The notes: generated by a model not told the origin, from the sequence alone. A stretch of DNA of 64,000 bases from Dehalococcoidia bacterium (GCA_965226745.1 CBDDDS010000005.1:18389-82388); one strand, 5' to 3'. Shown: positions 35,245 through 50,247, counted from the stretch's first letter. Program-made: numbers and translations.

Positions 35245-36006
35245 ATGGCCCATCTCGAGGAATACGCCGACAAGTACAAGACCATCCAAATGGAGCGGCG
35301 CGAAGGCATCCTCCAGCTTACCTTCCATACCGATGGCGGCAGCCTGGTCTGGGGCGGCGACCCCTCGCCGCACATGGAGTTCGGCTACGCCTTCGCCGAC
35401 ATCGCCAGCGACCCTGAGAACCGCGTCATCATCATGACCGGCGCCGGCGACGACTACTGCGCCCAGATGGCCCTGCGCGGCGGGCGGAGGTCGCCGCAGA
35501 CGTGGGACAAGACCTACTGGGAGGGCAAGCGATTGCTCATGAACCTCCTCGAGATCGAGGTCCCCATCATCGCCGCCGTGAACGGCCCTGCCCTCGTCCA
35601 TGCCGAGATCCCCCTGCTCAGCGACATCGTCCTCGCAGCGGAGAGCGCCGAATTCCAGGACGCGCCGCACTTTCCCAGGGGAACCGTCCCCGGCGACGGC
35701 GTCCACGTCGTTTGGCCGCTCCTGCTGGGCCCCAACCGGGGCAGGTATTTCCTGCTCACGGGCCAAAAGCTGTCAGCCCAAGAGGCCCTTGCCCTCGGCG
35801 TCGTCAGCGAGGTGCTGCCCAAGGACCGTTTGATGGCGCGGGCTTGGGAGCTTGCCCAACAGCTTTCGCAGCAATCAACATTGGCTCTGCGCTACAGCCG
35901 CGTCGTGTTGACGCTTCACTTGAAGCGATTGCTCCAGGACATGCTCGGCTACGGGCTGGCCTTGGAAGGGCTAGCCATGCTGGGTAGACAGGAGGAGTCG
36001 GGCTAG
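35245..36006 (+). CDS. enoyl-CoA hydratase/isomerase (crotonase) family protein
   Basis: ...VIIMTGAGDDYCA..., ...VPIIAAVNGPALVHAE... and ...LLTGQKLSAQEALALGVVSEVL... are typical of the crotonase fold. Confidence 0.85.
   Translation: MAHLEEYADKYKTIQMERREGILQLTFHTDGGSLVWGGDPSPHMEFGYAFADIASDPENRVIIMTGAGDDYCAQMALRGGRRSPQTWDKTYWEGKRLLMNLLEIEVPIIAAVNGPALVHAEIPLLSDIVLAAESAEFQDAPHFPRGTVPGDGVHVVWPLLLGPNRGRYFLLTGQKLSAQEALALGVVSEVLPKDRLMARAWELAQQLSQQSTLALRYSRVVLTLHLKRLLQDMLGYGLALEGLAMLGRQEESG
35922..36006 (+). repeat. 85-bp direct repeat, copy 1 (the functional 3' end of the crotonase gene)
   Basis: GAAGCGATTGCTCCAGGACATGCTCGGCTACGG...GGCTAG is repeated at 37465-37549 with about 8 mismatches. Confidence 0.85.
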
Positions 36007-36255
36007 GGCGCCGCTGAACAAACCCGCAGATCGATCGCGCTCCCTATCCGGCTATGCCGTAGTGCATGAACCTATGTAGACTATCCCGAACAGGCTACGG
36101 AACAAAGGGGCTCGCGGCGATGAGGACTACCGCATTTCCCATCCGAGTGACTCTATCGGAGCCACCGTTATGAACTACAGCGATGGGCCATTTTCGGATT
36201 GCTCTCCCAGCCCCCTGGATACCATGGCTATCTACGCTCTGTACCAAAACATCCC

Positions 36256-37452
36256 ATGACAACCAGGTCGAGCATAGCCAGGATGCTTCTCGCCGCTCTC
36301 TTGATCGCGGTGACCTTGGCGCTTTCCGGAACAGCGTGTGGTAGTCTTGGTCAAAGGCTTGGCGGACTCGTTGGTCGAGAACATTTTGGACCTAGTTGGA
36401 CCGCAGACGGAGAAAGCATAGTATTTGGCTATCGTTATGGGGCCTCCGGTGTGGGTGTGGGGGAAGTAGATAGCATATACTTGGTCAGCTCCGACGGCGC
36501 CGGGCTGAGGAAATTGATTCCACAGGACGCTCAGCCGGATAACGCGGCTGCATTTGATTATTCTCCAGATATAGCAGGCTCTAAGATAGCTTTCGCCACG
36601 CTACGGTACGTCAAAAGCGGTGATAGGGAATATGAGATCGCCACTGCGAACCTCGACGGTTCCGACTACAGGAGACTAATCGACAGCAACGGTTCGGACC
36701 TAGCCCCGGCATGGTCACCGGACGGCAAGCATATCGCCTTTGTCTCAAACCGAGCTGGATTCGCCTCCAAGGAGAATGATCAGGTTAGGGAAGCTTCTTT
36801 CAACGTCTATGTTATGGACGCGGATGGCTCGAACGTGTGGCCGATGGCTCCCAGAGTCTTCATCTCACTCTACCAGCCTCCCAGCCCGCCTAAGTGGTCC
36901 CCCGACGGCGACTACCTCGCCTTCCGAAGCGGATACCACCTGTACACCGCGCGCTTCGCGGGCGTTCCTAACTTTCTCGGTCTGACTAGGACCGATCCGG
37001 CCTGGTCTCCGGACGGCCAATGGATCGCGTTCAGCCATAGAGAGCCTATCCCGGAGACTGCGATGGCCGCAACGATATACATCACGAGGCCCGACGGTTC
37101 GGAGGCGCGCAGGGTGGTCCATTTGCCTGGGGGAAATCCCCAGAACCTGTCCTGGTCTCCCGACGGTTCTGCCTTGCGCTTCTCGTCTGATATCGGGGGT
37201 TACAAAGAAGTCATACATCGGATCGGGATCGATGGCTCGGGCCTTCAGCAGATCGCGGAGATCGATTACGGATCCCAGATCGCCTGGTCCCCTGATGACA
37301 GCAGGATTGTTGTATCCCGTATTGGGGCTACATTTTACTATTCAATAGAACCCCGAGATGCGTTGCTGTACACCATGGCGTCAGATGGATCGGACAGGCG
37401 CGTGCTGGTGCGGGTGGGTGATTTCGGCGCGGAGGCAGCGAATGGCGGATGA
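36256..37452 (+). CDS. PD40/TolB-like beta-propeller repeat protein, probable lipoprotein
   Basis: Start moved to MTTRSSIARMLLAALLIAVTLALSGTAC. Contains multiple WSPDG-type repeats (PAWSPDGKHIAFVS, PKWSPDGDYLAF, PAWSPDGQWIAFS, LSWSPDGSAL, IAWSPDDSRI). The GC content is lower than that of the flanks. Confidence 0.75.
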   Translation: MTTRSSIARMLLAALLIAVTLALSGTACGSLGQRLGGLVGREHFGPSWTADGESIVFGYRYGASGVGVGEVDSIYLVSSDGAGLRKLIPQDAQPDNAAAFDYSPDIAGSKIAFATLRYVKSGDREYEIATANLDGSDYRRLIDSNGSDLAPAWSPDGKHIAFVSNRAGFASKENDQVREASFNVYVMDADGSNVWPMAPRVFISLYQPPSPPKWSPDGDYLAFRSGYHLYTARFAGVPNFLGLTRTDPAWSPDGQWIAFSHREPIPETAMAATIYITRPDGSEARRVVHLPGGNPQNLSWSPDGSALRFSSDIGGYKEVIHRIGIDGSGLQQIAEIDYGSQIAWSPDDSRIVVSRIGATFYYSIEPRDALLYTMASDGSDRRVLVRVGDFGAEAANGG

Positions 37453-37464
37453 TAGAGGTCTCCA

Positions 37465-37549
37465 GAAGCGATTGCTCCAGGACATGCTCGGCTACGGCCT
37501 GGCCGTAGAAGGGCTGGCCATGCTGGGCAGGCAGGAGGACTCAGGCTAG
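37465..37549 (+). repeat. 85-bp direct repeat, copy 2 (displaced crotonase 3'-end fragment)
   Basis: It encodes KRLLQDMLGYGLAVEGLAMLGRQEDSG* against KRLLQDMLGYGLALEGLAMLGRQEESG* in copy 1. Most differences are synonymous. No upstream gene body is attached. Confidence 0.85.
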
Positions 37550-38973: not shown

Positions 38974-40827
38974 ATGTACGTCGTTGGCACGGCAGGCCAC
39001 GTCGACCACGGAAAATCCACGCTCGTCAAAGCCCTCACCGGGATGGACCCCGACCGCCTTCAGGAAGAGAAGCAGCGCGGCCTCACCATAGACCTCGGCT
39101 TCGCCTGGCTCGAGCTTCCATCCGGCCGCGAGATCAGCCTCGTTGACGTCCCCGGCCACGAGCGGTTCATCAAGAACATGCTCGCCGGCGTTGGCGGCAT
39201 AGACCTCGCCCTCCTCGTCATAGCCGCCGACGAATCGGTCATGCCCCAAACCAGGGAACACCTGGCCATCCTCGACCTCCTCCAGGTGCGACGCGGGTTG
39301 GCCGTCGTCACCAAGCGAGACCTCGTCGACGACGAGATCCGCGACCTCGTTATCGAAGAGGTCGCCGACGTTCTGCGCGGCACCGCCCTGCAGGGCATTC
39401 CCATCCTCGCCGCGTCCGCAGTGACCGGCGAGGGCATCCCCGAGCTGCTCAAAACCCTGGACGAGCTTCTGGAGGAAACCCCGGTGCGGGCAGACAGGGG
39501 CCGGCCCCGCCTGCCGGTGGACCGCTCCTTTACCATGACCGGCTTTGGCGCCGTCGTCACTGGAACCCTGATCGACGGCTCTCTCTCCGTAGGCCAGGAG
39601 GTCGAGGTGGCCCCCAAGGGCCTCACCGGGCGCATCAGAGGCATCCAGACCCACAAGAAGAAAGTCGACGCCATCCAGCCCGGCAACCGCGCCGCCATCA
39701 ACCTCTCCGGCCTCTCCCACGACGACCTCGAACGCGGCGACGTCCTGGCGCTCCCCCGCCACCTCAAGCCCTCAACCGCCATCGACGTCCGGCTCAGGCT
39801 CATTCCCAGGGCGCCCCACGGACTGCGCCACAACGTCGGCGTTACGTTCCACACCGGCAGTAGCGAGAGCCCCGCCCGCGTGCGCCTGCTGGAGCGGGAT
39901 GCCGTTGAACCCGGCGAGGAAACCTGGGCTCAGATCAAGCTGGAGCACCCAACCCCCGTTCTGCGGGGCGACTTCTTCGTCATCCGCTCCGCAGACGCCA
40001 CGCTCGGCGGCGGGACCGTGACCGAGCCGCACGCCAAGCGCCGCCGACGCTTCCATCCCCCCACCCTCCGCCGCCTGGAGATCCTCGCCAACGGGACCCC
40101 GCGAGACCTTGTGCTCCAGGCCCTCGAAACCAGCCAGCCCAGCAGCCTCAAATCCCTGGCGCCCGCCGCCAACCTCTCCCTCGAAGAGGCCCGGCGCGAG
40201 ATCGACGGCCTTGTGAACGACGGCTCGATGGTTGCCCTTGGCGACCCTCCCAACGCCGTCTACTACACCTCCCCGGGCTGGCAGTCCCTCGCAGCCAAGG
40301 CCGCTAGCGCCCTCGCCGAGTTTCACCGGGAGCACCCCGTCCGCAGGGGCCTGCCCAAGGAGGAGCTCCGCAGCCGCCTCGCCCTCACCTCCGCCACGTT
40401 TGCCCAAGCCCTGGCCCTCCTTGGCGCCGAGGCCCAACTGGCCGAAGACGGCGCCCTGGTAAAGCTGGCCTCCCATCAGGTCCGGGTCAACCCGGAGGAC
40501 CGCCAACGCATGGAGCGGTTCGTCAAAGAGCTCCAGGCCGCGCCATTTGCTCCGGCGCCCCAAACGGCCCTGGACGCCGACCTCCTCAACGTCCTCGTGG
40601 ACGAGGGTACAATAGTCCGCGCGTCGGACCAGGTCGCCTTTGACGCCGTCGCCTTCCAGGAAATGGTCAACCTCGTGGTCGGGCGCACGAGGGAGCAGGG
40701 CAGCATCACGGTGGCCCAGGCGCGCGACCTCCTCGGCGCCAGCCGCAAATACGTCCTCGCTCTGCTGGAATATCTCGACGAGCAGCGAATCACCCGCCGC
40801 AACGGCGACGAACGGATTTTGAGATAG
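38974..40827 (+). CDS. selB: selenocysteine-specific translation elongation factor SelB
   Basis: Start at [46 protein letters not shown] (G1-G2 motifs). DVPGHERF and TKRD are present. The C-terminal winged-helix region ...[27 protein letters not shown] is typical of the SECIS-binding domain. Confidence 0.9.
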
Positions 40828-40829
40828 CC

Positions 40830-42002
40830 GTGGCCCTCGACTTCCTCAAGGTCGCCTCCCAAGTCGAGGCCATGGCCGATCAGGTTGTGGCCCGCGCCCC
40901 CCAATGGGGCCAACAGCTTGACCGCGCCATCCAGGAGTTGCGCCAAACGGAATACATAGCCCTGGAGAGCAAACGACGCCGGGCCAAGACAACGTTCCTC
41001 GTGCCGGGCATCACCGGCCCGCTGTCGCTGCAGGTCCCCTGCCCACCCCTGCCCCCGGATTTCGCCGCCCTCGCCGCCGACGGCTCACACATCGACGTCA
41101 GCCGCCACGCCGCCGCCCGCTACTTCCTGATAAACATCGGCGGCGTGGAGCTTCGCTACGGCTCGGCCCCCGGCGCCCGGCTGGAGAGCCACCCCCGCCT
41201 CTACACCGACCCTGAAGACATGGCCGTCACCGACCCCCTCGATGGCCTGCGCCCCCAGCTCATCCAGGGGCAGTTGCTGGGGCTCATGCGGGGCATCCAG
41301 GAGCTCCAAGCCCTCGCCGCACTCGCCCTCGTGGACGGCTCGTTGATTCTGCTGAGTCTCCTCGGGCAAACCTTTCCCGACTACGTCAAACGCAAGCTGT
41401 TGCAGGAGCAGTTCTTGCCCGCTCTGGCCCAGCTCCGGTCGCTGGCCGAAAGAAGGCCCCTGGCCGTCGCCGGCTACATCAGCCTTCCCAACAGCGCCGA
41501 GGTCGTCAATGCCCTGCGGGTCTCCCTCTGCCCCTATGACCCCCCCAACTGCGACGCCCATTGCCGCGCCATCCGCCCGGGTGACCGCCCCTGCGATCCC
41601 GTCGACGGCCTGCGCGACAGGGAAGTCCTGGCGCGCCACCTCGCTGAGGGCGAGCGCTCCGGCGTCTTTTCCAGCCAGTCCTCGGTCGTCCAGGACTGGT
41701 ACGGGGAGCACGAGGTGTGCTTCTTCTACGTCAACGCCGGCAACGAGATTGGCCGCGTAGAAGTCCCCGCCTGGGTCGCCCACGAGGAAGACCTCCTCTC
41801 GCTCACCCACGCCCTCGTGGTCGATCAGAGCAGACGGGGCCTTGGCTACCCCGCCGCCCTCTCCGAGGCTCACGAGCAGGCCGTAGTTACGGGCCGCGAC
41901 CGCCAGGAGTTCGCCCGGCTGGTGGAGGAGTCGCTCCAACGGCGGGGGCTTGCGCCCTCCACTTCGGAGAAAGACGCGTCGAAGAGGCTCAAGTGGCTAT
42001 GA
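40830..42002 (+). CDS. nurA: NurA-domain 5'-3' nuclease
   Basis: The GTG start lies 2 nt after the selB stop. ...ALAADGSHIDVSRH..., ...LALVDGSLILLSL... and the length of about 390 aa match the NurA pattern. Confidence 0.75.
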   Translation: MALDFLKVASQVEAMADQVVARAPQWGQQLDRAIQELRQTEYIALESKRRRAKTTFLVPGITGPLSLQVPCPPLPPDFAALAADGSHIDVSRHAAARYFLINIGGVELRYGSAPGARLESHPRLYTDPEDMAVTDPLDGLRPQLIQGQLLGLMRGIQELQALAALALVDGSLILLSLLGQTFPDYVKRKLLQEQFLPALAQLRSLAERRPLAVAGYISLPNSAEVVNALRVSLCPYDPPNCDAHCRAIRPGDRPCDPVDGLRDREVLARHLAEGERSGVFSSQSSVVQDWYGEHEVCFFYVNAGNEIGRVEVPAWVAHEEDLLSLTHALVVDQSRRGLGYPAALSEAHEQAVVTGRDRQEFARLVEESLQRRGLAPSTSEKDASKRLKWL

Positions 42003-42580
42003 ACATGGGCCTCCGCGTCGGCGAAGTCATCGAGGCGTCCACGGATGCGTTCACTGCTCAGGCGTACCGCCTCTACGAAGCGCCCCCCCTCGGCACCCTC
42101 GTCCGCGCCGGCAGCGATCCGCCGGTCTACGGCGTCGTCTGCTACACCACCACCCGCGGCATCGACCCCGGCCGGCGCCCCATCGCCAGAGGCGAACACC
42201 TCCCCGACGAGGCGGCGGTCTACCAGGACAACCCCCAGCTCGAGCACCTGCTGAAGACCGAGTTCAACGTCGTCATCATCGGGCACCGCGAGCAAGACGT
42301 CATCCGGCATTACCTGCCGCCGCAGCCGCCCCGTATCCACGCCTTCGTCCACAGGTGCTCCCCGCAGGAAGGGCGCGACGTCACCGGGAACCTGGGCTTC
42401 CTGGAGCTGCTCCTGAACTCCCGCGCCTCCTCCGACGACGCGCTGGCCGCCCTCGTCCGCGAGGCCGCCCGCTGCCACGACGACCCTCAGGCCTTCCTCG
42501 TGCGCGCCGGCAAGGAGCTGGTGGTACTGCTCCAGGGCCAGGGCATCAGGCTCAACGGCCTCCTCCGGAGACTGGCGTGA
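41999..42580 (+). CDS. hypothetical protein, possible stand-alone HAS-barrel-like protein
   Basis: The ATG overlaps the nurA stop as ATGA. The pattern LRVGEVIEASTDAFTAQ...PLGTLVRAG...VYGVVCYTTT...FNVVIIGH...PPQPPRIHAFVHRCSPQE resembles the N-terminal barrel of HerA. No family confidently recognised. Confidence 0.55.
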   Translation: MNMGLRVGEVIEASTDAFTAQAYRLYEAPPLGTLVRAGSDPPVYGVVCYTTTRGIDPGRRPIARGEHLPDEAAVYQDNPQLEHLLKTEFNVVIIGHREQDVIRHYLPPQPPRIHAFVHRCSPQEGRDVTGNLGFLELLLNSRASSDDALAALVREAARCHDDPQAFLVRAGKELVVLLQGQGIRLNGLLRRLA

Positions 42581-42659
42581 CCCCGCCGTTGCTCAGGACG
42601 CCACGGCGGGTCGGATGGCAACCTCCCCCCGCTGGAGGCCGCGTGAACCAGGAGGGCCA

Positions 42660-44318
42660 ATGAATCAAATCAATCAATGGGATGGCAACCAGGCCCGCCC
42701 CCTCGGCGTCGTGGTCGCCGGCGCCCTTTCCCAGGGCGTCGAGGTCAAGCTCGACCCCGATACCTCCGTGGAGGCCATCAAAGCGGGGACCTTCGTCACC
42801 ATCCAGGGCGCTCAGCACCGCTACTTCGGCCTTGTCACCGACGTAACGTTGCAATCCCTCGACCAGCGTATGCAGATGTCCCCGCCCGACCTGTCCAACC
42901 CCCTCATTGCGCAGGTCATGCAGGGCGCCGGCTTCTTCGGCGTCATGTCCGTCAGGCCGGAGGTCACCATCACCGGCGACGCCTCCTCCATGCTGGACGG
43001 CCCCCAGCCGGCCAAATCAGTCCCCTCCCACTTCTCCCGCGTGTTCACGGCCTCCGAGCAGGACATCGCCCTCGTATTCGGAGAGGAGGACGAGAAGCAC
43101 TTTCACATCGGCACGCCGCTGGACATGGAGACCAAGGTCTGCCTGGACCTGGAGGCCTTTTCCCAGCGCAGCAACGGCATCTTCGGCAAGAGCGGCGCCG
43201 GCAAGAGCTTCCTCACCCGCCTCATCCTCGTGGGCCTCATACAGAGCAACGTTGCCTCCACCCTCGTCTTCGACATGCACGGCGAGTACGGCTGGGAAGC
43301 GCGCGACCCCGAACGCGGCCGCACCGTCAAGGGCCTCAAGCAGCTCTTCCCGTCCAACGTCGCCGTGTTCTCCCTCGACGAGGAAAACGCCCGCCGCCGC
43401 AACCTCTCCCCCGACCACCTCGTCCGCATAGGCTACGGCGAGATCGAACCGGAGGACATCGAGCTGTTGGCGGGCACACTCAACCTCACCCCAATCCAGA
43501 CGCAGGTCGTGCCCCAGATAGCCCGCCACTTCAACCGCAACTGGCTGAAGGGCTTTCTGGACTTGCCCCGCGACGGACTCTCCGAGCTGGCGACGCAACT
43601 GAACGCCCACGAAGGAACCCTGGGGGCGCTGCGCCGCAAGCTGGCGACCCTGGAGCACATGCAATTCCTCACCGCGTCGGACGCCGGCGGCGAGGAGGCC
43701 ATGCGCCGCATCCTCGAGTACCTCGACCGCGGCATGCACGTCGTGCTGGAGTTCGGGCGCTACGGCAGGGACATCACCGCCTACGTCCTCGTGGCCAACC
43801 TCCTCTCCCGCCGCATCCACGAACGCTACGTCCGCCGCACCGAGGAGTTCATGGGGCGCGCCGGCCAGATGCCCCAACCCCTGGTCATCGTCATCGAGGA
43901 GGCCCACCGCTTCCTCAACCCCGGCATCGCCCAGCAGACCATCTTCGGCAACATTGCGCGGGAGATGCGCAAGTACAACGTGACCCTTCTCGTCGTCGAC
44001 CAACGCCCAAGCGGCATCGACGACGAGGTCATGAGCCAGATCGGCACCAAGATATGCTGCCTCCTCGACAACGATCGCGACGTCGACGCCGTCCTGACCG
44101 GCGTTTCAGGAGGGCGCGAGCTGCGGCGCGTGCTCTCCAGGCTGGAAAGCAAGCAGCAGGCGCTCATCTTCGGGCACGCCCTGCCTCTGCCGTTGGTGGT
44201 GCAGACCAGGGAGTACGGCTCCGCCGATTCCTACGCCCAGCTCCAGGGCTTCCGCCATCAGAGAGACCTTGCCCAGCAAATGGACCGGGACGCCGACGAC
44301 CTCTTCGGAGAGCGCTGA
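42660..44318 (+). CDS. herA: HerA/FtsK-superfamily ATPase (HerA-like)
   Basis: Start moved to the ATG at 42660 after AGGAGGG. N-terminal barrel (PLGVVVAGALSQGVEVKL...GTFVTIQG...YFGLVTDV), Walker A GKSGAGKSF, Walker B LVIVIEEAHRF, and LLVVDQRPS. Confidence 0.8.
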   Translation: MNQINQWDGNQARPLGVVVAGALSQGVEVKLDPDTSVEAIKAGTFVTIQGAQHRYFGLVTDVTLQSLDQRMQMSPPDLSNPLIAQVMQGAGFFGVMSVRPEVTITGDASSMLDGPQPAKSVPSHFSRVFTASEQDIALVFGEEDEKHFHIGTPLDMETKVCLDLEAFSQRSNGIFGKSGAGKSFLTRLILVGLIQSNVASTLVFDMHGEYGWEARDPERGRTVKGLKQLFPSNVAVFSLDEENARRRNLSPDHLVRIGYGEIEPEDIELLAGTLNLTPIQTQVVPQIARHFNRNWLKGFLDLPRDGLSELATQLNAHEGTLGALRRKLATLEHMQFLTASDAGGEEAMRRILEYLDRGMHVVLEFGRYGRDITAYVLVANLLSRRIHERYVRRTEEFMGRAGQMPQPLVIVIEEAHRFLNPGIAQQTIFGNIAREMRKYNVTLLVVDQRPSGIDDEVMSQIGTKICCLLDNDRDVDAVLTGVSGGRELRRVLSRLESKQQALIFGHALPLPLVVQTREYGSADSYAQLQGFRHQRDLAQQMDRDADDLFGER

Positions 44319-47473: not shown

Positions 47474-47749
47474 CTACCGGGGCGCCAGTAGTTCGCCGTA
47501 CCCGAGTTCGACTCGGCCGTCATCGACGTGTCTGAGCAACACGCGGATGTCAGAGCCATCCGGCGCCAACGTAACCAGCCTATCGAACGGGATGTACACC
47601 GCGATTCTGCTTCCATCAGGCGACCATGACGCGTAGCCCGGGGGTATGCCATAGTCCGAAAAGGAGATGAAGCCTGAGCCATCAACGTTCACCACGTGCC
47701 TCCCGTCGAGCAGCACGCTGCTTCCGTCCGGTGACACGCTGAGTTCGCT
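47474..47749 (-). pseudogene. PD40 beta-propeller gene fragment (C-terminal ~90 aa) truncated by the IS
   Basis: SELSVSPDGSSVLLDGRHVVNVDGSGFISFSDYGIPPGYASWSPDGSRIAVY...LVTLAPDGSDIRVLLRH... begins exactly at the left end of the IS. The upstream part of the tracked ORF is antisense to the IS. Confidence 0.6.
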
Positions 47750-47782
47750 TGACCTGCTCCCCGAAAACCGGTCCACGGATAA

Positions 47783-48082
47783 TTGGAGTCCTCCGGTCAA
47801 ACAGAGGAGGACAGCATGCGGAGGAGCAGGTTTACGGACGAGCAGATCATCGGGGTCCTGAGGGAGGCGGACGCGGGAGTGCCGACGGCCGAGGTATGCC
47901 GCCGACATGGTGTCTCACCGGGGACCTTCTACAACTGGAAGGCGCGGTTCGGCGGGATGGGCGTGAGCGAGGCGCGACGGCTGCGCCATCTGGATGAGGA
48001 GAACCGGAAGCTGAAGCAGCTGCTGGCGGAGGCGACGCTCGACAATCACGTCTTGCGGGAGCTGCTCCGAAAAAACGCATGA
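47783..48082 (+). CDS. IS3-family transposase OrfA (HTH)
   Basis: [48 protein letters not shown]...[14 protein letters not shown] is the typical IS3 OrfA HTH plus leucine zipper. Confidence 0.85.
48070..48076 (+). promoter_or_regulatory. candidate -1 programmed ribosomal frameshift site (A AAA AAC)
   Basis: The X XXY YYZ heptamer is in the OrfA frame, just before the OrfA stop. OrfB is in the -1 frame. OrfA TGA and OrfB ATG overlap as ATGA. Confidence 0.6.
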
Positions 48083-48918
48083 CGCCTGCAACGCGACGGG
48101 AGACCATGCACCGTGTCCAGGAGCGGTGGGGCTTCAGCGAGCGTCGCGCCTGCAGGCTGATGGGTATCCACCGATCGGTGGCCCGCTATAGGCGGGTGGG
48201 CAGCGACGCACCCGAACTCCTCAAGCGACTGCGCTCGCTCGCCGCGGAGCGGCGGCGCTTCGGGTATCGCCGGTTGTGGGTGTTGTTGCGCCGGGAGGGG
48301 TTCGGCGTGAACCACAAGCGGGTCTACCGGCTCTATCGGGAGGAGGGGCTGTCCGTCCGGCGTCGGAAGCGCAAGCGGATGGCGGGCATCGCTCGCGTCC
48401 CCACGATGGCGCCCGAGCGCCCGAACCAGCGGTGGTCGATGGACTTCGTGTCCGATGCGCTCGCCAGTGGCCGGCGGATACGAGTGCTGACGGTGATTGA
48501 CGACTTCACTCGGGAGAGCCTGCCCATGGAGGTGGACACGTCGTTGCCCGGCCTCCGCGTGACAAGGGTGTTGGACAGGCTGGCCATCGACCGTGGCCTG
48601 CCGGAGCTGATCACCGTAGACAACGGCCCTGAATTCGCCGGGAGGATTCTGGACGCTTGGGCGTATGCACATGGGGTGCATCTGCACTTCATCGATCCGG
48701 GCAAGCCCGTGCAGAATGCGTACATCGAGAGCTTCAACGGGCGGCTTCGCGACGAGTGCCTCAACGAGCACTGGTTCATGAGTCTTCCTGCGGCCCGGAA
48801 CATCGTCGAGCGCTGGCGGGACGACTACAATGCTGTCCGGCCCCACAGCGCACTGGGCAACCGGACGCCCGAGGAGTTCGCACAACAGGTGGCTAGGAAT
48901 ACGCCGGTCGGACTCTAA
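48079..48918 (+). CDS. IS3-family transposase OrfB (DDE/rve integrase core)
   Basis: [10 protein letters not shown] (D), [12 protein letters not shown] (D) and [23 protein letters not shown] (E) give the rve-type catalytic triad context. Confidence 0.9.
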
Positions 48919-48950
48919 GAATACTTGGACCTAATTCAGGGGGCAGGTCA

Positions 48951-49401
48951 GCCGGCAGACGACTACATATACTTCATAGGGTGGCGCTATTCAGGCGGAT
49001 TGTTGAGGGTCACCCTTAATTCTGTTCGCAGCGACGGCTCTGATGAGCGCGAGCTCGTCAACCTCACTGATTTTCGCGAAGCCGACCAACTCAGCGTGAG
49101 GGAGATCAGCCTGTCACCCGACGGTAGCAGCTTGCTGCTCGACGGGAGGCACGTGGTCAACGTTGATGGCACAGGCTTCATCTCCCTTGGGAACTATGGC
49201 TTAGGCCCAGGTTATGCGTCATGGTCGCCTGATGGGAGCAGAATCACAGTGTACTACAACCCGAAGGTGGACGGGAGGTTGATCTGGAGGAGCATTGCGC
49301 TGGTTACGTTGGCCCCGGATGGCTCTGATGTCCGCGTGTTGCTCAGATACGGTAAAGACGGGCTCGAACTCGGGTACGGCGGACCACCGAATCCTCGGTA
49401 G
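48951..49401 (+). pseudogene. PD40 beta-propeller gene fragment (N-terminally truncated by the IS)
   Basis: ...PADDYIYFIGWRYSGG...ISLSPDGSSLLLDGRHVVNVDGTGFISLGNYGLGPGYASWSPDGSRITVY...LVTLAPDGSDVRVLLRY.... The reading frame enters from inside the right IS repeat, and there is no signal peptide. Confidence 0.6.
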
Positions 49402-49609: not shown

Positions 49610-50083
49610 TCATCTCCTCCGTCGCCGCTGATGAGGCTTATGCCGCCGCCGGCCAAAACCAAGTCCTCGGACGATGAGTGTTACCAGCACTTTCCCCAGG
49701 CCCTTGCCCACGACCTTGGCTACCCGCCCGAACGAAGCCGCCTTCTCGCGGCGCCAGTATGGGATTGGGTTAAGGCCGGTGAGTGCCTGGAAGCGCGGCG
49801 AGCGCTGGTCGCGCAAATTCTTCAGTGCAGCTTCGAAACTCGCTGCGTCTGCGCGGGTTGAGAACTTACGAGAGGTCCAAACACGTTTGGGGTGTCCTCC
49901 AGCGGTGGACGGAACCTCACCCTTCTGATGTGCTCGTATCCGCTCTCTGAGGTTCCCAGTATGGCCAACGTAATGGCCATAGTCGGTATTGAGCACGTAG
50001 ACAAAGTATTTTCGGTTAGAGATAGCAGCGTCGCGCTCGTCTTGCTCGCGTCCCAGGTCCTCCGGTTCATGCCAATTCCTCAT
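49610..50083 (-). CDS. GIY-YIG nuclease domain protein with a basic C-terminal tail
   Basis: Start moved to the ATG at 50083. KYFVYVLNTDYGHYVGHTGNLRERIRAHQ... matches the GIY-YIG core. The locus has lower GC content. Confidence 0.6.
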   Translation of the reverse strand: MRNWHEPEDLGREQDERDAAISNRKYFVYVLNTDYGHYVGHTGNLRERIRAHQKGEVPSTAGGHPKRVWTSRKFSTRADAASFEAALKNLRDQRSPRFQALTGLNPIPYWRREKAASFGRVAKVVGKGLGKVLVTLIVRGLGFGRRRHKPHQRRRRR

Positions 50084-50247
50084 TCTTCCCCTACCCTGTC
50101 CATCGCCAGGTGAAGGCGTCCTCGGTCTGCCGCTGCCAGCCCGGCAGGGCGTGGGCGTAGATGTCCTTTCCCGGCCTGTTCGAGTTGGCCTCAGGCTTTG
50201 AGTCCCATGAGGAAGACGCGGAGACTCGAGCCTCACCCCTACGGAGG

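Follow-up and report, generated by a model that had tools for sequence, protein, structure and literature searches.

The window analysed here is a 64,000-nucleotide (nt) stretch of a Dehalococcoidia bacterium genome (GCA_965226745.1 CBDDDS010000005.1:18389-82388; coordinates are window positions unless another locus is named), in which the genes for a NurA-family nuclease and a HerA-type ATPase enclose a third gene, whose 193-amino-acid (aa) product we call X. Judged from its predicted structure, X is an old stand-alone paralogue of the N-terminal HAS-barrel of HerA that lacks the ATPase and carries a C-terminal helical bundle. Its gene is found directly upstream of herA in all relatives in which this could be measured. 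X is probably an undescribed subunit of a NurA-HerA repair machine; on balance, we think that the Dehalococcoidia have a DNA-end-processing machine of the NurA-HerA type with X as a conserved third protein, which would bind at the crown of HerA as an adaptor, collar or gate and so take part in repair.

The features under study are as follows.

40830..42002, + strand: nurA, NurA-family nuclease, 390 aa, GTG start
41999..42580, + strand: X, 193 aa, stand-alone HAS-barrel paralogue (by predicted structure); barrel ~6-119, helical bundle 122-192, ATPase domain absent
42581..42659, + strand: X-herA spacer, 79 nt, with the Shine-Dalgarno-like AGGAGGG at 42650-42656
42660..44318, + strand: herA, predicted HerA-type hexameric translocase ATPase, 552 aa, probably with its own N-terminal barrel

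X resembles the N-terminal barrel of HerA

The AlphaFold2 model of X was of high confidence (pLDDT 91.9; pTM 0.85) and consists of a beta-barrel at residues 6-119 and, after it, a bundle of five helices at 122-192; at 55-84 the barrel is interrupted by a loop and two short helices. An earlier note on this DNA, made from the sequence of the window, had seen a likeness to the HAS-barrel in the product of 41999-42580 and had proposed a Foldseek search as a check. When the model was compared with the PDB in this way, the top 50 matches were all HerA chains (E 5e-7 to 2e-4, probability 1.00, 127-191 aligned columns). The matches include Sulfolobus 4D2I, the Thermococcus HerA-NurA structures 9X1L/9X1M, Deinococcus 7WRW/7F6D and the SIR2-HerA, DUF4297-HerA and TdpAB complexes, with 4d2i and 9x1m as the best (E 5e-7 to 9e-7). 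The query-normalised TM-score, 0.41-0.47, fits a superposition of the barrel half only.

Sequence comparisons gave a fainter signal of the same kind. X matched nothing in Pfam, NCBIfam or PADLOC, in keeping with the failure of the earlier note to place it in a family. Among 49 members of the X family, however, 19 matched the HAS-barrel model PF09378 below threshold (best E 1.4e-5) and no other family recurred; the X of the window was itself unmatched. With alignments of 252 X and 121 HerA sequences, hhalign placed residues 3-133 of X colinear with residues 11-144 of its own HerA over ~120 columns (E 1.2e-4 to 4.3e-4). The motifs common to X and the HerA N-terminus in this alignment were YGVV..v.T.S.DP, NP.L and PxP...H.FV..(C/S)..E(V/I), and the order of the secondary-structure elements was the same in the models of both. 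These larger alignments were needed, as a comparison with small ones was not significant (E 0.077). The sequence profile of X gave only a chance match in the PDB (E 0.67), and a Foldseek search of viral structures (BFVD) returned nothing at E<=1e-3. Because the AlphaFold2 and Foldseek results, the sub-threshold PF09378 matches, the colinear hhalign alignment and the matching order of secondary-structure elements agree, we regard X as a paralogue of the HerA barrel, and the likeness proposed in the earlier note was borne out. One loop of X, basic and then acidic, is longer than in HerA and highly conserved.

X is a family under purifying selection

Homologues of X were numerous: 1,625 were found at E<=1e-3 in a collection of 5.8 billion proteins, nearly all of them 190-215 aa long, and those with names were labelled "hypothetical protein" and came from Chloroflexota/Dehalococcoidia metagenome-assembled genomes (MAGs). 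An exhaustive profile search gave 1,062 X clusters at 50% identity, of which 270 matched with E<=1e-30. In 49 members that are ~50% identical to the window protein, 16 columns were invariant and were grouped in two motifs, one at T52-L85 (DPGRRPIARG, an acidic stretch, then Y..NPQL..LL) and the other at L106-C120 (LPPxPPRIHxFVxxC). The ratio of non-synonymous to synonymous substitution rates (dN/dS) was 0.08-0.44 against four orthologues. X is under purifying selection, and its reading frame is coding and not a product of chance.

The distribution of X was scanned with an 11-sequence X alignment in one genome per GTDB species, and at least 396 species genomes contained relatives. The best 80 of these were all from Dehalococcoidia/Chloroflexota, except for a single bin with the label Deltaproteobacteria. 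This view did not reach the weak tail of the family (E 1e-10 to 1e-3), and X may occur beyond the Chloroflexota. The closest X genome was a Dehalococcoidia MAG chromosome, with 92% identity for X and 98% for HerA, and the next was a SAR202 MAG.

A few unusual members were rejected. An apparent NurA-X fusion of 372 aa (P0207; locus L090, 3450-5367) is most likely a frameshift artefact, as it lies on a long-read contig of 2x coverage in which nurA and herA are fragmented. The extra regions of two other members (P0034 and P0222) were attributed to a spurious low-complexity match and to a chimeric short contig, respectively.

Junctions of the three genes in the window

The open reading frame (ORF) map and the junction sequences placed selB, nurA, X and herA head to tail with no gene between them. 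The nurA gene starts with a GTG at 40830, 2 nt downstream of the selB stop (TAG, 40825-40827), and its stop codon (TGA, 42000-42002) overlaps the ATG of X at 41999 as ATGA; X has a second in-frame ATG at 42005. Between the X stop (TGA, 42578-42580) and the herA ATG at 42660 there is a gap of 79 nt. An alternative in-frame ATG of herA lies at 42615, but alignments with homologues begin only at about residue 4-15 of the protein that starts at 42660. The coordinates and junctions that the earlier note had given for nurA, X and herA agree with this map, and the AGGAGGG ribosome-binding site that it had pointed out before herA is present at 42650-42656, within a spacer that we measured as 79 nt.

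The predicted RNA fold of this spacer was no better than that of shuffled sequence (z -0.03), and scans for promoters and terminators in the interior from selB to herA found nothing above chance. We also considered whether the nurA TGA might be read as selenocysteine, so that translation runs on into X, and dismissed this since X does not share the frame of nurA.

The X-herA pair is invariant and nurA is loosely linked

We surveyed the best 80 of the at least 396 X genome loci by tblastn and ORF extension; 78 of them were measurable for herA and 48 had a full 5-kilobase (kb) flank. The herA gene was directly downstream of X in all 78 measurable loci, overlapping it by 4 nt in 52 and lying within 20 nt of it in 66. 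The 79-nt spacer of the window is missing in most other genomes, which have the 4-nt X-herA overlap instead. In a reciprocal sample taken from HerA, X was carried directly upstream in 4 of 4 loci (hmmsearch E 1e-79 to 1e-89).

The nurA gene was seen upstream of X within 5 kb, in the same orientation and order, in 37 of the 48 full-flank loci (77%). Its distance from X ranged from a 10-nt overlap to 4.3 kb, and overlaps occurred in the window and in several other lineages. The genes lying between nurA and X were unrelated and variable, among them LOG-like proteins, lipoproteins, an AAA-ATPase pair and a 293-aa uncharacterised protein. The other 11 of the 48 loci had no nurA within 5 kb, and their flanks encode a thiamine-pyrophosphate enzyme, a superoxide dismutase, LiaF and a thioesterase. 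Because herA follows X in 78 of 78 loci and nurA is loosely linked, the invariant module is X-herA, and the window, with its overlapping triad, shows one arrangement among several.

The earlier note had described a tightly coupled triad and had called for a survey of its gene order and of its association with defence islands. The X-herA unit of this triad proved to be conserved, but its nurA end did not, being often separated from X or absent within 5 kb, and the flanks turned out to be housekeeping genes. On the points by which the note had let its proposal stand or fall, no match of X to an unrelated family emerged, X is kept beside herA in other genomes, and coding constraint is present.

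One possible interpretation of the loose linkage is that X and HerA form a translocase that works independently of NurA on DNA or another substrate, for instance in DNA transfer, segregation or pumping, with NurA as a frequent neighbour only. The invariance of X-herA would fit this, together with the 11 of 48 loci without nurA nearby and those in which up to 4.3 kb of unrelated genes intervene, and in one locus (L094) the upstream gene is that of an HNH endonuclease and not nurA; HerA relatives in Thermus also work in DNA transfer (PMC5365140, PMC5448004). We nevertheless consider this interpretation improbable, as nurA lies upstream in the same orientation in 77% of the full-flank loci and overlaps X in the window and several lineages, and as NurA retains invariant residues of the catalytic type. 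In the remaining genomes, moreover, nurA may sit elsewhere.

Individual loci showed further arrangements. In L094 (3782-6710), the gene directly upstream of X-herA encodes a 168-aa HNH endonuclease, and on the downstream side there are a HicB-like gene and a pair of AAA_15/AAA_21 ATPase genes. L095 (45-4471) has a four-gene form, in which an ORF of 293 aa, for which no Pfam family is recorded, stands between nurA and X, and herA comes last. The starts overlap or abut the preceding stops, and DUF4258 and MqsA-like genes follow. Between nurA and X of L049 (3031-4842) there are a 424-aa AAA-type ATPase (MAIRKISISNFKGFKDL...) and a 177-aa partner, a pair that looks, by sequence, like an OLD- or DUF4276-type defence pair. 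In one SAR202-like lineage (L001-L003; e.g., L001 4296-4799), a 167-aa ORF without a Pfam match overlaps the nurA start, and in L004-L009 a stretch of 268-383 nt without a called gene separates nurA from X. In L091 (6001-12353), X-herA is followed by a Metallophos protein (Mre11/SbcD-like, 403 aa) and an SMC_N/AAA_23 protein (Rad50/SbcC-like, 855 aa). This neighbourhood echoes the archaeal operon and that of Oceanithermus (PMC5448004) and, as a single case, speaks for a link to repair. Neither of these L091 proteins had a tblastn match in the window or in any of the remaining 94 loci.

NurA and HerA are members of their families

The NurA and HerA identifications made in the earlier note were confirmed by Pfam, which also identified SelB unambiguously, and the motifs that it had quoted (AADGSHID and VDGSLILL for NurA; GKSGAGKSF, LVIVIEEAHRF and VVDQRPS for HerA) are all present in the translations. 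The nurA product matched Pfam NurA (PF09376) with E 9.8e-19 and 68.3 bits (cut-off 21) over residues 81-353, covering profile positions 4-254 of 254, and its homologues align from residue 1. Residues D84, E158, D169, H327, H348 and E349 were invariant among 26 orthologues. D84, E158, D169, H327 and H348 are the putative catalytic D/E/D/H residues of an RNase-H-like fold, and would be equivalent to those of the solved NurAs; a search of the PDB found no relatives of this NurA at the sequence level. The Dehalococcoidia NurA clade also has a conserved Cys cluster, CPx6CDxxCx9C, at residues 234-255, in which C234, C245 and C255 never vary, while 20 of the 26 orthologues have C241. The cluster C234/C241/C245/C255 suggests a zinc or iron-sulfur site, which we have not seen described for NurA.

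The herA product matched Pfam DUF87 (PF01935, the HerA central domain) with E 1.2e-31 and 111 bits (cut-off 23.2), and its Walker A (GKSGAGKS) and Walker B (VIVIEEAH, with the catalytic glutamate) motifs are intact in the window protein and invariant in the clade. By this central ATPase domain and the Walker motifs, the protein belongs to the FtsK-HerA superfamily, in which it is predicted to form a hexamer and to translocate. Against the HAS-barrel model PF09378 the window HerA scored 22.3 bits, under the 25.2-bit cut-off. Its homologues, more than 8,000 at ~57-64% identity, mostly carry both PF09378 and PF01935, so that HerA seems to have retained its own barrel, as the earlier note had maintained.

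This HerA is remote from the solved ones (best 8wiv, E 1e-19), and phmmer found no match between it and D. radiodurans HerA at E<=1e-3. Its best scores against the NCBIfam HerA equivalogs for double-strand-break repair and for antiphage function, 80-88 bits, did not reach the cut-offs of 800-970. Scores so far under the cut-offs for repair and antiphage equivalogs place the window HerA, at the level of sequence, in a separate HerA clade.

The genomic context favours repair over defence

The earlier note had left two functional options, an end-resection machine with an extra barrel subunit or a defence system. Housekeeping genes flanked the module in every neighbourhood examined, including selB/selA, hemN, secDF, fur/feoB and ilvD as well as MR_MLE, RecQ and others. 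In the window, the flanks comprise an enoyl-CoA hydratase, a Rieske oxygenase, selB, a sodium:solute symporter (SSF) and a luciferase-like monooxygenase. The synteny with selB recurs among lineages that are only ~50% identical, and the GC content of the triad is like that of its neighbourhood. A tblastn search with X found no match in 50,697 phage and 72,556 plasmid records. The distribution was class-wide with recurrent core-gene synteny, and not the patchy one of islands or mobile elements. Because of the housekeeping flanks, the class-wide conservation and the absence from phage and plasmid records, the evidence favours a vertically inherited DNA-end-processing machine over defence, so that of the two options the former is retained, with its extra barrel subunit, and the latter is disfavoured.

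If the three genes were an anti-phage system of the SIR2-HerA/DUF4297-HerA type, NurA would be the effector and X a sensor or adaptor. HerA-family ATPases with effectors on the barrel face are established modules whose structures are among the Foldseek matches of X. In PADLOC, the window HerA was matched best by PDLC04105 (E 3e-38), a model for a HerA of defence systems, and toxin-antitoxin or defence-like genes are found near some loci: HicB-like genes in L001-L003 and L094, the AAA and small-partner pair of L049, and the MqsA-like and DUF4258 genes of L095. However, HerA was the only one of the three with a PADLOC match, X and NurA having none, and it reached only ~87 bits against the cut-off of 800 of the NCBIfam antiphage HerA equivalog. 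No known antiphage effector gene (SIR2 or DUF4297) lies beside the triad, whose neighbours are selB and the SSF gene. Conservation across the class at ~50-60% identity with core-gene synteny is also unlike a patchy, island-borne pattern, and the metabolic flanks of the window, its even GC content and the absence of X from phage and plasmid collections likewise speak against defence. We therefore hold an anti-phage function to be very unlikely.

A possible role of X at the HerA crown

In the D. radiodurans complex, six HAS-barrels make up the DNA exit pore, and the basic NurA dimer sits on an acidic surface of these barrels (D78, E80, D81; PMC9960219). Because X copies this NurA-docking domain and is probably co-translated with HerA, its location on or beside the HerA crown is the simplest model. 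X would be made together with HerA via translational coupling in most genomes, and its barrel would assemble onto or beside the N-terminal crown of the HerA hexamer. There it could act as an adaptor, collar or gate between translocase and nuclease while HerA pushes duplex DNA into NurA for resection. The conserved loops T52-L85 and L106-C120 would be likely contact or DNA-lining surfaces, the basic loop RRPIARG being a candidate DNA contact and the acidic stretch that follows it a candidate NurA contact. In a more specific version, X may sit on the HerA ring as a further crown of six members or within a mixed collar, with NurA docked on X and an X:HerA:NurA ratio of ~6:6:2; we offer this version tentatively, as possible but doubtful.

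Several points weigh against an adaptor at the crown. That X binds HerA or NurA is something we infer from fold and gene order, and the sequence link between X and HerA is weak (hhalign probability ~30%), so that the kinship depends mainly on predicted structure. The C-terminal helical domain of X was not significantly similar to HerA in any of its parts (E 0.23), and nothing else that resembles it could be detected. The AlphaFold2 model of the window HerA was of low confidence (pLDDT 60) and too poor for structure searching, although its N-terminus is beta-rich (pLDDT 65-83). HerA seems to have its own barrel, and a second barrel ring is not obviously needed. Given the variable and sometimes missing nurA, X may serve HerA independently of NurA, and a neighbourhood with Mre11/Rad50 was found in L091 alone among 95 loci.

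In the main rival to the adaptor model, X serves in regulation or assembly. By mimicking the barrel it would cap HerA protomers and thereby control the hexamer, or it would compete for NurA until DNA is damaged. X is homologous to the very domain through which HerA makes its ring contacts and docks NurA (PMC9960219) and has no ATPase domain; since HerA seems to have kept its own barrel, X would not replace a lost domain. Between close relatives X also evolves faster than HerA, with 92% against 98% identity to the L010 proteins. These features would suit a regulator, and present data do not separate it from the adaptor model. The 4-nt overlap in 52 of 78 loci, however, suggests approximately equimolar co-production, which one would sooner expect for a constitutive subunit than for an inhibitor that works by titration, and we regard a regulatory role as unlikely, with an adaptor, collar or gate as the preferred reading.

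Other features of the window

Upstream of the triad, a 63-aa ORF (37358-37549) ends in a near-duplicate of the C-terminus of the enoyl-CoA hydratase (35245-36006), ...LQDMLGYGLA(L/V)EGLAMLGRQE(E/D)SG. Between both copies of this C-terminus lies a PD40/TolB-like gene (36199-37452) in a stretch of lower GC content (0.588). By its sequence, the region 35245-37549 looks as though the hydratase gene had its 3' end duplicated when an insertion took place. Downstream, an IS3-family element consists of an HTH_Tnp_1 ORF (47783-48082) and an rve integrase ORF (48079-48918), and is flanked by similar PD40-repeat ORF fragments in opposite orientation, at 47474-47908 (-) and 48925-49401 (+). A GIY-YIG domain protein of 208 aa with an Arg/Pro-rich N-terminus is encoded just past this element, at 49610-50236 (-).

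Comparison with known HerA systems

Dehalococcoidia, SAR202 among them, are mostly uncultured bacteria that abound in oceans, sediments and aquifers. NurA-HerA is an archaeal-type DNA-end-resection machine, of which bacterial studies have covered only two-protein complexes, those of Deinococcus and Thermus. If the Dehalococcoidia have a three-protein version, the structural and mechanistic models for nuclease docking on the barrel crown of HerA would have to be extended, and ~1,000 clusters of "hypothetical protein" would gain a function. If X forms a second crown, the architecture at DNA ends in these bacteria would be one that no solved complex from archaea or Deinococcus displays. Studies of crown assembly and partner recruitment, a question that bears on HerA-based anti-phage systems too, would also have a natural tool in a free HAS-barrel protein. 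X, NurA and HerA are all small and soluble-looking, so that the idea is directly testable. The HAS-barrel itself was reportedly defined by Iyer et al. in 2004. The literature examined describes neither a third component of NurA-HerA nor a HAS-barrel protein that stands alone, and an earlier passing mention is possible.

The nearest comparisons are with NurA-HerA of D. radiodurans (7F6D, 7WRW/7WRX; PMC9960219) and the nurA-hepA duet of Thermus (PMC5448004). As in the window, the nuclease gene comes first and HerA follows, with stop and start overlapping or nearly so, and the genes lie amid unrelated housekeeping genes. The HerA of these bacteria has HAS-barrel, RecA-like and helix-bundle parts, as the window HerA probably does, the barrel ring being the NurA-docking face. 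They are two-gene units, however, whereas here a 193-aa stand-alone barrel paralogue is always found directly upstream of herA. The window HerA is in addition too distant from that of Deinococcus to be matched by phmmer at E<=1e-3, and its NurA has the conserved Cys cluster.

For the archaeal HerA-NurA systems (Sulfolobus 4D2I, Thermococcus 9X1L/9X1M), the same logic of a motor plus a nuclease is expected. The archaeal genes form a herA-mre11-rad50-nurA operon, whereas Mre11/Rad50 genes are absent here from the window and from 94 of 95 loci, and no separate barrel protein was found for the archaeal operons in the literature examined.

The anti-phage HerA systems (SIR2-HerA/Nezha, DUF4297-HerA and TdpAB) have in common with the Dehalococcoidia module a HerA hexamer, predicted in our case, and an adjacently encoded partner, which in those systems binds the N-terminal barrel face. 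Here the partner is a barrel paralogue without a recognisable enzymatic domain and not SIR2, DUF4297 or TdpB; the distribution is class-wide and syntenic rather than island-like, and the scores stay below the NCBIfam antiphage cut-offs.

A more remote and putative parallel is the crown of F1-ATPase, in which the N-terminal beta-barrels of the alpha and beta subunits (the 'AS' in HAS-barrel) are of the same fold class and hold a hexameric P-loop ring together. Those barrels are, as far as is known, always fused to a nucleotide-binding domain, whereas X is a free barrel. It is this conserved free barrel, a probable subunit, that sets the Dehalococcoidia module apart from all characterised NurA-HerA systems, and the NurA and HerA beside it are themselves bona fide members of their families.

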